Shown piece by piece: positions 15,401 through 21,400 of a stretch of DNA of 64,000 nt. Below the pieces are notes generated by a model. It did no database searches. It was given only the letters and a program-made list of their open reading frames with translations, and was not told the DNA's origin. The first letter of the stretch is position 1. Each line of letters opens with the position of its first letter. The DNA comes from Euglena gracilis (taxonomy: Eukaryota): contig CP154954.1 of NCBI GenBank assembly GCA_039621445.1, forward strand, positions 31,768,012 through 31,832,011, in the 5' to 3' direction. Made by a program: the position numbers and the translations under genes.

Positions 15401-18400
15401 CTGCGGCAGCCGCCACTCCCCGCCCTGCGGCGCAGTGCGGGGGGGGGGGGGGGCTCGACCCCGGGCTCCACTGGCTCCTCCGATAGGCTCCCGACCCACC
15501 TTGACCCACCTCCAACGACGTTCGAGGAGACTCCCGAGTCCCGTCGAACGCCGTTGGAGCACGTTGGGTGAGGCTCAAGAGACTCCTCTCACGGACCATC
15601 TTCACACCGTGACCCTGCCCGGCTCAGCCCTCCCAATCCCTCGTGGCATTCACCCCGCGAATGCCACGAGAGGTCGCCTCGCTGGCCCGTGGTCGCATAT
15701 GGTCCCCCCGACCACGGTTGGATGCCCTCCTCAAAAAGCTCCCCTCGTCTGACCCGGTATGGTCATGGCCGGTATCACCCTACGATACGCAACATGGTGC
15801 GGGCTTCCCAAGCGGTTGCCCTTTTTGTCGCTGGACGGGGCAGCCCTCTATGGCTTTCCCTCCACGGGGAGGGGGCGGCAGAGGTGGTGTCCTTCTTGAT
15901 TGTTGTTCGAGGTTGCTCGACGAGGCTCAAGAGAACTTCGTGGAACCACCTCGAACATAAAATCGACCAGGGATTGGTGTTAATCCGTATTTGGGGTGGT
16001 CAAATACTTACCCGAAATCATCCATAGTTGCAAAAACGCTGGTACTGACTGGCCAACCATCCAAAAAATTGAAATACAACAAAGAAAAGACAGATTTAGT
16101 TTGATACAACCTCTGAAACATCCAAATACCACAACCAAAAAGGATATTATCTGCATTCAATATATGTTGTCATACACTGATGTCTGACCTGAGTTAAAAA
16201 TCCTTGCCACCATTCCAGGGCCAATGTCTGTAGTTGTCTATGGTTATCTGTAGTCATCAGGGAGTTTTTTTTTTTAAGACCGGGGGACCCCCCACCCACC
16301 CACCCACCCCCTGGGGCGCCCTCCGGGGGGGCTCCCGGGGGACCCACTCACTTTCCCCCCAAAACTGGCCAAAACTTGCGAAAATGCCAAAAATAGCACT
16401 TTTTCAAAAATTTTCGGCGCCTTTGGCACCGAAAAGTATATCAGTATTCCCCGGGAGGGGGGGGGGGGCTCGGCGGACCCAACCACCCTACCCCCCCAGG
16501 GTCCAAAGCTAAAAAAAAAAACTCCTGGTAGTCATCGTATTTTGTGGGTTTTGGCCTTATCCGAACTTATCTGTATTTATCTGTAGTTATCCGTTTCAGG
16601 ATAAACACCAATCCCTGGCTCAACCATGAGACTGCAAGAAAGAAACATTAATTTTCAACTAATTTCAACTCCCTTTGTTTCCGATGCCCTTTTGTATGAA
16701 ACTGTTTGGAGGGCCCCAAAATAACAGTATCCTTTGTGTTACATAAGCCCTGTATGTGCAAATCCCTTTTGTTGTGCAAGTCCTTTTCGTAGTCAACTTT
16801 CAAAGACGGCCCAAAAAACCACCTAACTGACCGCCCCCCTCCAATGGAAGCGCGGGGCCGTGACAAGCGCAGGGTCCAAATAAAAGGGCACCCCCCCCCA
16901 CCGAAGCGAGGTCCGCCATAAACACACCCGCAATTTTATCAGGGGGTTTATATGCTGTCAGCAACGAGGTTGGAGAGCCTCCTCGAATGTCTATCGAGGT
17001 GATTCGGGGAGGCTGTTTAAGCCCCGCCTGAGGGGAGGGGTATAAAAAACTTTTAAGGCGGCTCCAGCTCAAACGTTCAAGTAACACCCCCCCCCCCCTC
17101 GACTGAGTCCCACACCTCCGTCAGGATGCAGGGCTCGTTGCGGACGCGGGCGGTCACCGCCTGGGGCAGCCGGCGGAAGAAGCGGCGGCCGGGCGTAGCT
17201 TCACGACCCCAAGGGAGGAGTACGTCACGCCCTGAAGCCAACCATGCCGCCCACCCCCCTGCCCTCCCTTGCCCTCCTGTGAGATGTTCTCCTGGCAGCC
17301 AACAGCGGGGGCCACGACTTCCAGCAGTAATGACGGGATCAAACTAGGTCGTCTGCATGCTCTGTCACGGCCGGCGGCTCCATCTGGAAATCACGCTGCA
17401 CCGTTTCACAGAATCATGCAACCGCAAATTGCGCGATAAGATTTGCCCAGATCACAGGCTCAAAAATTTCAGGCTGACTGGACCCCTCCCCCCAAGGATG
17501 GGTCCCTCAAGGCTTTAGCGACGTCCTGAGCGGTGGTGGACCTGCTCCTCCACCGGCAGCAGCCGCAGGAACGGCAGCAGCACTGCTTTCCACCACGCCC
17601 CGGCGCAACACTGGCTGGCGAGCGGGCGTTTTTTTTTCCGTGCCTGGAGACCCCGCAGCACACAGCGCCATCAGCCGGGGGGGGGGGGCACTGGGGCGAA
17701 AAACAAACCGCGCATCTCGGAAAAGCCACAAAGACAGACCAGCAGCCGATGCTGTGCTTCTAAAGTGGTAGCGGCACCGAGTTTGGGAGGTTCCAGAATG
17801 GCTCATGATGGCCCCAGCAAACCGCAAGGAGGTCGACGAGTCGGCCAGCCACATGCCCAAAAAGGGAGGACAAAAGAGCGGCGCTGACCCCAACAGACGA
17901 GTGGCCAACTTTGAAACCGAGTTGACCCAACCGTCTGCAGCGCCACGAGCGGGTGGGGGGGGGGAGAGGGTAGGGATGCCGGAGCGTCACGCCGCGGCCT
18001 GCCCGGGCCAGCGCATCGGCGAAGCCGGCCGCCTCCCCTGCATCGCCGCCGCCGCCGGCTGCAACCAGCTGCGCGGTCTGTGCCGCCTTCGACCGTCGGA
18101 ACGCGGAGAGCAGCAGCTCCGGGAGGTGGTCCCGCAGGCAGGGGTTTTCTTAAGGACCTCGGGGGGGGGGTTCCGCAGGCCGGCTGGGAAAAAAGGTGCT
18201 GGCTGGACCCCCCCCCCCAGGCCCTGGGGGTGGGGGTCCAGGGGGGGGGGAGGTCCGGCTGGCTGGGAGCTGGACCCGGTGGGTAACCCGAAAAGGCCCA
18301 ACAAAGTCCAAATCCAACTGGGTTGGCATTTTTCAGCCAAAATTTGGAGAGGACAAAACCCAAAACCACCCAAAATGCCGTTTTTGGAGATTTTTAACCC

Positions 18401-21400
18401 CATTTCCCAAAATTTTCAGCCCAGTCCGGCTTCACTGGGCTGGCCTGAACCTTATTTCAGCAGACACCTGGGGGTACGCAGCCCGGCTGAGTGGTGCTGG
18501 CTGGAACAAAAATGCTGGCTGGCTGGACCCCCCCCGGGGGGGCAGGGCCCCCTCCAGCTTAGGAAAACCCCTGCCCGTAGGAACGCATTCCACGTGCTGT
18601 CCCGCACGTCCTCTCTGAAAGGGGGCGGGGGGGGGCAGGGGGGCAGGTAGTGCAAACAGTCTTGGAAAGCTGTCACAGTTGGGGGGGGGGGCTAGAAATG
18701 GCCAGGGGTTTCTTCTTTGCGGACTTCAGTGTGAGGCAACCCCAGCAGCGTCCCATACAAACACAATACTGGCGCCGAGCATGCATTCCGAGAGAGGCTT
18801 TCAATTACAGCCAAAGTTCATGCAGAATGGAGATAAATGATAAAAAATACAAAATACAAACGAAATAAAAGAAATGAATCTGCAGCAATTTCGAAAAAAT
18901 GACAATCATTTTGAATCGGTGATGACCTTCATGTGGAACGAACGGTCACTGGTACCCATCTTTTTCATCTTTTTTTTATAGTCCATTTTTGGACTATAAG
19001 CACCTGCCAATGCCTCATCGACAACGCAGCACACAGCGCTGCACAACTCAACACAACCCAACACAACACAGCAGAACACACCACAACACTGCACAACACA
19101 CCACACCAAACCACACCACCACAGCACAACACAACACAACACACCACAGGATAACGCAACAGCCTACCGGGACGAGGTCAGCTCCCAGTCGGCATGCACC
19201 GCAAAGCGCAGCCCGATGTGGCGGACGGGCAGGTACGCGTACAGCCACTGGTCCGGCAGCGCCTCCGCGCCGCGCACCACGGGACACGCGATGCACAGCG
19301 TCGTGGACTGGTACGCCTCCGACCCCCCGGCCCCGTCGCTGCGCCGCACCTGAGGCGGACCCGCACGAGGCGGAACCCCGAGAACAGCGCTTCCTGAAAC
19401 CGGACGAAATGCCCAGACGGCGGGAAACCCTGGACTTGTGGAGGGATTGTGGACGGATGTGTGGAGACGGGCCAGTGGAGGGGTGGGGGTGGCCAACCTC
19501 CGAGCACAGAGGCTGTCGGAGAGCAGGTTGGGCATGGCGGGGAAATCAATGTGACACACAGGCGCGAGGCAGCTTGGAAATGGTGGGTAAACTAACGCAC
19601 AGGCGCGAGGAAAAGGATTTGAAATAATTCAGCTGGGAGGTTTATCTGTGCCCGGGAAGATTGAACGGAAACCTCAGGGGTGAGAAAATTTTCCCTACCA
19701 GTGGGGTGCCTCTCAGATGCAACTATGGATCAAGACCCTCCTGCTGACCCCCCTGACTGGGCAGGCACAACCAACACCTGGTGGTCCTTCGGCTGGAGCG
19801 GCAGGCTGGAGACAAAGTACTCGTGGCGCTGGGTCTCGACCTCCCCCTCCCCCTCGCCGCGGTGGGTCAGCACCGCCACGGTCCCCACCGCGTCGGCGGC
19901 CGTGCGCCGCAGCGCGGTCCACGCCCCGGCGTCGGCGTCCTGCACCACGATGCACCTGCAGGGGGGAGGCCGACATGGGACTCAAAACCTGCTTTCCATG
20001 TGGGGGGGGGGGCGAGAGGCGGACGGGGGCCTGCGGCTCCACGTGGCCCAAATACATCCGGAGTTCCGCCCCCTGAGGACCTTGCCCGACGATCCATTCG
20101 GAAAAGCGGTCGCAGCAGCAGCGGTGGAAGGAAGGGCAACAAATGCATCGGGTTGGGCGTTGATCTCCCACCTGGCAGGAATGCCTTCGGGGTATACAAT
20201 CCCCCGGGCCCCAGAAGCCAGAAAAGACTGGGCTCTGGGCTCTGTGATAAAACTGAATTGGTGGTAATTTGCATGCCCCCTTCCTCCCCACGCTGCACTT
20301 GATCTGTGCACAAAATTGTGATTCTCTTTTGGTGGCTGCTAATTGTCGTTGGGCTTGCGGATGTGCTTTGCAGACAGCTACCCGGATCGTATGTCACAAG
20401 AACCGTGCATCGCGCACAGCAGGCATCGCAGTGCTGGAGGGAAGAACTCCACATGTAGAAAGGGCACTCCCAGGGAGGGGATGATGGCTTATGTGCGGGG
20501 GCGGACCGCAAGTTGTTGAGGAACAGCAACAGGGGCGGCGGGATCTCCGACAGGATGCGCTGCGCTGTGATGGGCCGCTTGAGGGGCATCACGATGCGTG
20601 GGCCCAGGACCCCTCCTCCCCCCAGGGCTGTATAAGAAAGCCCCGTTGGGGGGGGGTCGACCCCCCCACCATGGAGGCGGGGGGGGGGGCGACTCCCGCA
20701 CCCACCACCCATAAGGTTCCGGGATTCCCATGCAGCCCTCAGACACCGTGGCCACCGACGCTATGTGCTGTCAGGCGACCCCCCACCGGCTGTTGCCGCA
20801 CTTTGCTTGTGCCGTTTGCCGGATTGATGCGACAAATACGGACAAAAACGAGAAAGAACGAAGCACCAAAGAAAAACCCTTAAGAACAGAGACAGACACA
20901 ACAAGGAGGTGGACACAATACAAACAATGGCCAACAATTCTGGTATCCAATAAAATATGCGGGAATTTGGGGGAATCCATTTGCGGGAAAATTGCGAGAA
21001 TCCACAATGGGTGTGCTGTCCCATTGAACAGTGGATACCCAATGGATAGATACCCAATAGATACCCAACGACACAAACGCAGCTATCATTCCATGAGGGG
21101 CCCTGCCTGTGGTGAACCGCTTCCCAGCCAGGTGAGGGTTTCCCCTCGCGGGGAGGTCGGGGGACGGCCGGTCGGGCACGAGGGTCGGGTAGATCATGTG
21201 GAAGTCGCCGTGGGTCGCCTTGTCGAAGCAGACGTGGAACCCGTTGGAGTGGATCTCCGGCCGGTCCGTCACCTGCAGAGGAGGGGGGGAGCGTTGCTGC
21301 CACCCCGGCACAGGCCACCCCCACAAAGCTATGCAATGAACCACGCTTCAGCCCAGGGGGCGCCTTGTGTCTGTGCGGTAAAAAAGTGCACGGGTGCGCA

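Follow-up and report, generated by a model that had tools for sequence, protein, structure and literature searches.

The subject of this analysis was a 64,000-nt stretch of the Euglena gracilis genome (assembly GCA_039621445.1, contig CP154954.1, forward-strand positions 31,768,012 to 31,832,011; hereafter the window, in whose coordinates all positions are given), in which a minus-strand gene related to Sacsin and NO VEIN is interrupted by a 443-nt segment. We conclude that a non-autonomous DNA transposon, named here E18139, probably inserted into an exon of this gene with an 8-bp duplication of its target, and that it would be removed from the transcript by noncanonical splicing. The local reading, in which the predicted nonconventional intron equals an intact miniature transposable element with inverted repeats (MITE) plus one copy of the 8-bp target-site duplication (TSD), is well supported as far as sequence comparison can carry it, and the enzyme that mobilised the element may have been hAT-like. 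Coordinates of all the features are collected in Table 1.

The interrupted gene and its Y/Z junction

The interrupted gene was classified as Sacsin/NO VEIN-like through a whole-library HMMER search with the open reading frame (ORF) 21923-22306 as query, which returned 18 proteins at E <= 0.001, including one from a plant annotated as "protein NO VEIN-like" and several of dinoflagellates named "Sacsin/Nov domain-containing". The match to the Pfam SACS family was weak (E 0.0013, under the curated cut-off). Exons A, B, C, D, and X were then located by tblastn of the proteins found with HMMER on the window, and they are followed along the minus strand by the short exon Y and by exon Z. The conventional intron that separates exons X and Y carries a CACAA-like repeat at 19042-19148.

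An arginine codon is split 1+2 between exon Y (..WNAFL) and exon Z (RDHLPELL). When positions 18134-18576 were taken out, the reading frame went on as RDHLPELLLSAF, and when they were kept in, a stop appeared after 41 codons. The joined peptide was aligned with five database homologues, P0004 and P0019 (both from one cluster), P0007, P0016, and P0017, and all five alignments continued across the Y/Z junction, which itself showed no gap. For P0007 and P0017 it was ungapped throughout, P0004 and P0019 showed small gaps 4-5 residues off the junction, and P0016 presented a gap 4 residues before it. Read on the minus strand (18576..18134), the segment starts with GG and ends with GC, and GT/GC..AG borders were found in no register that the junction repeat permits. 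An earlier interpretation of this locus, made from the letters of the DNA and referred to below as the sequence-only reading, had claimed that removal of 18134-18576 restores a conserved peptide and that the segment lacks GT and AG ends; both claims held, the first of them being based now on database proteins.

Structure of element E18139

Inside the predicted intron, E18139 consists of two terminal inverted repeat (TIR) arms of 16 nt each, complementary at 15/16 positions, that enclose an interior of 403 nt. The 8-mers directly outside the TIR are identical at 7/8 positions, and the sole mismatch between them corresponds to CTA versus CTG, leucine either way. Direct reading of the sequence confirmed in this respect the coordinates, the TIR and flank counts, and the synonymous nature of the mismatch that had been reported before. 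When the window was searched for the TIR pattern of E18139 with up to 2 mismatches, 3 matches were found against 0.01 expected, and none of 100 shuffles reached 3; the third match, at 33863, corresponded to the end of a different element.

The ORFs that overlap E18139 (17760-18149 and 18452-18691) had no Pfam match, and the element is short and contains no transposase gene. Regarding its RNA, the arms pair with each other, with the stem present in both the minimum free energy and the centroid folds, and the minimum free energy of -233.6 kcal/mol compares with -205.6 +/- 6.7 for shuffled sequences (z = -4.2), none out of 100 shuffles being equally stable. Relatives of the interior, at 75-76% identity, were detected at 8443-8587, 8947-9032, and 9067-9162, and the interior is unlike that of the ~280-bp MITE family described below. 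A metagenome search with the TIR plus 4 bases gave a sole match (L001), an unrelated and AT-richer sequence that was attributed to chance.

The predicted intron follows the published splicing code

The noncanonical splicing code of Euglena was defined by Nomura et al. (2025), through knock-ins into an E. gracilis exon, as 5'-N3CDG-/-CH'GN5-6|R (PMC12501133). According to the main account of that work, the donor spacer is strictly 3 and the acceptor spacer 5, with +1 tolerated, the exon has to start with a purine, and around 12 paired bases are needed inside CAG/CTG; the code is sufficient, as fully synthetic 50-bp introns that followed it were spliced on knock-in (PMC12501133). A code scan of both junction neighbourhoods gave 18576..18134 as the sole good candidate, with a stem of 11/12, and each term of the code is present in it: N3-CAG, paired arms, CTG-N5, and a purine (G) as the exon start. 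The splice points of the sequence-only reading, which lie 3 nt beyond the TIR on one side and 5 nt beyond it on the other, are an exact fit to the code published independently, and the element plus one copy of the duplication is what the code predicts to be removed. Segment 18134..18576 would be spliced out of the pre-mRNA, judging from this agreement.

A different outcome, to which we give little credence, is that the MITE did insert here but stays in the RNA, so that this gene copy or allele is disrupted and represents a young pseudogene within a multi-copy Sacsin/NOV-like family. The existence of a related gene copy elsewhere (P0001, see below) and the failure of any database protein, longer or of similar length, to match exon Z would suit such a pseudogene, and the insertion looks young (TIR 15/16, flanks 7/8), in which case the decay of a dead gene would not show yet. 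However, the segment carries every term of a code that was sufficient on knock-in, synthetic introns included (PMC12501133), the adjoining exons and two conventional introns of the gene look intact, and two further introns of the same gene fit the same code.

The first of these, the predicted A|B intron, joins exons A and B in frame, shows a stem of 8/12, and has the CGG..CCG borders of a derivative of the code that is named in the work of Nomura et al. (PMC12501133). The second one, C|D, is a candidate chosen as the best of 13 in the code scan. The 8-mers outside the A|B and C|D stems were identical at 5/8 and 4/8 positions, respectively, against control means of 2.5-3.2 out of 8; these identities agree with decayed duplications, although a sample of three introns proves nothing. 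The three introns that fit the code, together with the C-rich pyrimidine tracts, point to a euglenid host. With respect to the A|B intron, P0001 is an ORF of 112 aa, from an ENA contig of 1.58 Mb, in which the exons A and B belonging to a related gene are contiguous (..NNE-TH-GF..) and which runs into non-coding sequence past exon B. P0001 is thus a copy without the A|B nonconventional intron that kept the next intron, and its comparison with the window gene constitutes a presence/absence case for A|B.

Concerning the tails of the 443-nt intron (window 18134-18136 and 18572-18576), 3 nt at the 5' side and 5 nt at the 3' side lie outside the stem, so that, with the tails stacked on the stem, the 3' end would overhang by 2 nt; in addition, the three bases of the 5' tail can pair with the first three of the 3' tail (G-C, G-C, G-U). 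That this overhang reflects a staggered cut of the RNase III type is a speculation, much less likely than the idea on the spacers of the code discussed below.

A family of related elements in the window

Relatives with the same TIR and with 8-bp duplications, as would be expected of the transposon system proposed in the sequence-only reading, are present in the window. A scan for TIR pairs over positions 1-53500 (CAG..CTG ends, at least 12/14 complementary, spacing of 40-3000 bp) identified 41 pairs, 6 of them with 8-mer flanks identical at 6/8 or more. Flanks of 7/8 or better were found in 4 of the 41, whereas re-dealing the flanks gave a mean of 0.30 and reached 4 in 1 of 10000 re-deals, and dinucleotide shuffles of the window (n = 200) gave a mean of 0.005 pairs at this level. 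When the right flank was slid by 1 to 4 bases the count dropped, slide 0 alone being the maximum, and the leftover matches at +/-1 came from homopolymer flanks.

Besides E18139, the window contains at least 6 CAGG...TTAAG elements, two of which have non-homopolymer flanks, identical at 8/8 and 7/8. A degenerate pattern of the TIR end gave 28 matches against 4.18 +/- 2.35 expected. The sequence CAGG..T..TTAAG is common to all the element ends, followed in most left ends by ACC(C)CGGGGGG, and the elements at 8601, 35938, and 33863 make up one family of ~280 bp with three copies and 75-88% identity. Runs of 6-12 G are located just inside the left TIRs (8617-8640, 18155-18170, 33879-33890, 35954-35975, and 44999-45010), matched by C runs near the opposite ends of the MITEs, and together they account for many of the poly-G and poly-C tracts of the window. 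The reading frames across the other elements are nearly all open in this G+C-rich DNA, so ORF continuity there is uninformative.

Region 8408-9187 corresponds to a diverged element of greater age that resembles E18139 and into which the young MITE 8601-8882, with its perfect 8-bp duplication, has inserted. The left block of this older element is inverted with respect to E18139, and its own ends (CAGGGG.. and ..CCCCTG) show no clear 8-bp repeat. As the MITE at 8601-8882 is nested in a repeat and not in an exon, and is nevertheless flanked by an 8-bp duplication, its insertion looks like the work of a transposase rather than of a process linked to splicing. The presence of the decayed MITE 22431-22629 within the A|B intron suggests that nonconventional introns also serve as landing sites.

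A scan open to any terminal trinucleotide yielded 11762 TIR pairs, 38 of them with flanks of at least 7/8. Among these 38 pairs, 22 lay in G/C homopolymer runs, 8 in an ACAT tandem repeat (42.4-43.0 kb), 3 were CAG elements, and 5 were others (8194-9331, 50088-51148, 13662-16270, and two inside E18139). The pair at 8194-9331, with TIR CCCGGCCGGCCCCA (at least 12/14) and 8-mer flanks CCGCCGTC / CGGCCGTC (7/8), spans the whole region of nested elements, and it could be due to chance or represent a larger element or an intron with non-CAG ends.

The members of this family also bear on the possibility, which we consider improbable, that the segment is an ordinary nonconventional intron, its repeats having arisen from double-strand-break repair with filler DNA or from intron transposition at the RNA level, and its shared ends from selection for the code. 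The code needs just CAG/CTG and any 12 paired bases, yet the elements share a 16-nt CAGG..T..TTAAG end and the ACC(C)CGGGGGG run, and copies outside exons show exact 8-bp duplications of different targets, that at 8601-8882 being nested in a repeat. Moreover, reinsertion of an RNA would bring the N3 and N5 tails along and would produce no duplication. The repair pathway has in its favour a newly gained gapC intron with a repeat of 8 nt, which its reporters read as a footprint of break repair (PMC4770533), and the RNA pathway the circular RNAs formed by excised nonconventional introns, which could in principle reinsert (PMC11282704); the results of the transposase search given below would suit both.

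Table 1. Features of the window around E18139, its relatives, and the host gene.
Feature	Positions	Strand	Description	Basis
Predicted nonconventional intron Y|Z	18134..18576	-	443 nt; N3 GGG, CAG, paired arms, CTG, N5 CCTGC, exon starts G	Code scan, homologues
Predicted nonconventional intron A|B	22044..22739	-	CGG..CCG derivative, N3/N5, G exon start	Code scan
Candidate nonconventional intron C|D	20600..21108	-	CAG..CTG, stem 9/12, flanks 4/8	Best of 13 candidates in code scan
E18139	18139..18573	.	435 bp, non-coding TIR element (MITE)	Sequence read directly, pattern scans
E18139 left TIR arm	18139..18154	+	CAGGGGTTTTCTTAAG	Direct reading
E18139 right TIR arm	18558..18573	-	CAGGGGTTTTCCTAAG (minus-strand reading), CTTAGGAAAACCCCTG (plus-strand reading)	
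Flanking 8-mer, one TSD copy	18131..18138	.	CCCGCAGG	
Flanking 8-mer, other TSD copy	18574..18581	.	CCCGTAGG	
MITE	8601..8882	.	282 bp; TIR CAGGCTTCTTTTTAAG, 16/16; flanks 8/8, TTTCCCAA; inside older E18139-like element	
TIR element	13270..13389	.	120 bp; CAGGGTTTGATAT..; flanks C8/C8 (8/8, low complexity, weak evidence)	
Decayed MITE	22431..22629	.	199 bp; TIR of the same type; lies within A|B intron; flanks 5/8	Degenerate pattern
MITE	33863..34143	.	281 bp; TIR CAGGGGTTTTTTTAAG; flanks GGGGGGTC / GGGGGGGT(C), 6/8, G run	
MITE	35938..36208	.	271 bp; 88% identical to 8601-8882; flanks in G run, 6/8	
MITE	44983..45376	.	394 bp; TIR CAGGCTATTGCTTAAG; flanks GTCTGGCC / ATCTGGCC, 7/8	
Exon A	22888-22733	-		tblastn
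Exon B	22039-21923	-		tblastn
Exon C	21278-21141	-		tblastn
Exon D	20604-20506	-		tblastn
Exon X	19168..19358	-	..LPVRHIGLRFAVHADWELTSS(R); ends ..ELTSS plus two bases of Arg codon	tblastn
Conventional intron X|Y	18615..19167	-	GT..AG, C-rich pyrimidine tract	
Exon Y	18577..18614	-	38 nt; ends ..STWNAFL plus first base of Arg codon	
Exon Z	17979..18133	-	Start of (R)DHLPELLLSAF..; 3' limit provisional	Homologue alignment

Likeness of the elements to hAT transposons

The hAT transposons are characterised by an 8-bp TSD, a CAG-type terminus, and the terminal motif YARNG (PMC3014272). Like hAT MITEs, the members of the E18139 family have 8-bp duplications, a short TIR that starts with CAG, no coding capacity, and a length of a few hundred bp (PMC3014272). 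In contrast to hAT MITEs, part of the family departs from YARNG: the motif fits the CAGGG ends (18139, 33863, and 13270), but it fails at the fifth base in the CAGGC ends (8601, 35938, 44983, and 22431). The proposal of a hAT-like MITE in the sequence-only reading thus agrees with the 8-bp duplication and the CAG start, and as regards the terminal motif with part of the family, and "hAT" is used here as a likeness only. Neither the matching autonomous transposase that had been anticipated, nor any other transposase or hAT domain, was found in 31 of the 49 window ORFs of at least 230 aa.

Superfamilies other than hAT can also make 8-bp duplications. The element could accordingly be a cut-and-paste MITE and an intron, as concluded above, and belong to a different superfamily, with another or an undescribed transposase making the 8-bp duplications. 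We hold this as a possible but doubtful alternative: it would explain that YARNG, as given in PMC3014272, fits the CAGGG ends alone, and it is in line with the ORF search just mentioned, whereas hAT elements classically combine a duplication of 8 bp with a terminus of the CAG type (PMC3014272).

Other features of the window

The end of the window is filled by an (ATAC)n microsatellite of 10.2 kb (53798-63997), with around 2552 copies, 92% match, a G+C content of 28%, and a strong strand skew. In addition, a (CACA)n array of 324 bp is located at 11975-12298. A search of the window against Rfam gave no match.

Discussion

The scheme that we propose for this locus starts with a non-autonomous DNA transposon, with a TIR that starts with CAGG and ends with CCTG and with a family present at least 7 times in the window, which would insert into an exon and duplicate 8 bp of the target. 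The two TIR arms would then pair in the minus-strand pre-mRNA, and the noncanonical machinery, following the published code, would cut upstream of CAG at a distance of 3 nt and downstream of CTG at one of 5 nt, before a purine, removing the element and one copy's worth of the duplication and bringing the original frame back. In an arrangement of the type 8-mer/CAG...CTG/8-mer, bases 1-5 would be kept from the first copy and bases 6-8 from the second one, so the target would be exactly restored, whatever the orientation of the element, provided that base 6 of the target, read on the transcribed strand, is a purine. In the target of E18139, this base is G.

Several points weigh against this scheme. 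Within the window, a single, diverged relative of E18139 itself is present, and the better-supported family of ~280 bp, with three copies, shares with it the TIR type alone. Homopolymer flanks, which prove little, are found in 3 of the 7 elements. To these have to be added the lack of a transposase or hAT domain in the ORFs that were searched, and the result for exon Z, for which the query (17979-18131, minus strand) had no database match among longer or similar-length proteins, so that neither a protein derived from a transcript of this gene nor a relative with an empty site at this junction came to light.

Known nonconventional introns of euglenids share many properties with the 443-nt intron, as they have no GT-AG borders, carry CAG at +4..+6 and CTG at -8..-6, have pyrimidine|purine junctions with a purine as the exon start, and form a long terminal stem, with direct repeats at the junctions that make the border slidable. 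The 443-nt intron differs from those described in that its body can be recognised as belonging to a repeated family of TIR elements, which has further copies outside exons with 8-bp duplications of their own. In a transposon hypothesis, the sum of both spacers, 3+5 = 8, would be a necessary condition, and there is agreement between the spacers, which were established by separate genetic work, and the length of the duplication, which we measured on elements that lie outside exons. That the +4/-6 rule would in general be the footprint of a TSD is an extrapolation, with which no more than three introns and seven elements have so far proved consistent. We lean towards a still broader idea, with more hesitation than for the locus itself, namely that the code's spacers of 3 and 5 nt correspond to the TSD of 8 bp made by a superfamily of CAG/CTG MITEs, that exonic insertions in either orientation, with a purine at base 6, would be excised from the first transcript on, and that most of the ~70% of Euglena introns that are nonconventional could be such insertions, variously decayed.

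The elements of this hypothesis are in print to a larger extent than the sequence-only reading assumed. A MITE origin of nonconventional introns was proposed in 2014, along with the observation of direct repeats at most junctions (PMC3935182). Milanowski et al. (2016) described a strain-specific, newly gained gapC intron of E. agilis with eight-nucleotide direct repeats (PMC4770533), and a review of 2024 refers to "TSD-like sequences" at the junctions (PMC11282704). A survey of E. gracilis from the same year counted 11,653 border-variable versus 4,498 border-invariant nonconventional introns (PMC11170887), and in the 2025 paper that established the N3/N5 code 84.4% of the introns of E. agilis are given as slidable and their origin is called unclear (PMC12501133). 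In the portions of this literature that could be consulted, the transposon link is a hypothesis in which no element is named, and the 3+5 spacing is not brought into connection with the repeats. The freely readable main texts yielded no statement equating 3+5 with the length of the duplication, no assignment to hAT, and no element family with a name. The novelty claimed before has to be reduced accordingly, what stands being a sharpening of a published hypothesis by means of a concrete element and a simple quantitative prediction.

A parallel is offered by the introner elements of Micromonas and Aureococcus, which, as Huff et al. reportedly found in 2016, are made by DNA transposons and use the spliceosome and GT-AG sites. 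In both cases, a non-autonomous TIR element lies in an exon, and the duplication allows, or in E18139 would allow, splicing to remove the element plus one repeat with the frame restored. However, the predicted splice sites of E18139 are set by how far they lie from an RNA stem (3 nt and 5 nt), and its duplication is of 8 bp; the introners of Amoebophrya have inverted repeats of 8-20 nt and direct repeats of 3-5 nt (PMC7789003).

In conclusion, the origin of the nonconventional introns of euglenids has been a question since the 1990s, and the locus described here provides a concrete example for the idea of transposon insertion, as it links a family that bears the marks of cut-and-paste transposition, and that has copies both within exons and elsewhere, to an intron that fits the splicing code and to an arithmetic reason for the 3- and 5-nt spacers. 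With any euglenid genome that has been assembled, the hypothesis could be tested within an afternoon and, if true, it would explain why most Euglena introns are slidable and how the genome tolerates a massive invasion of its exons by transposons.

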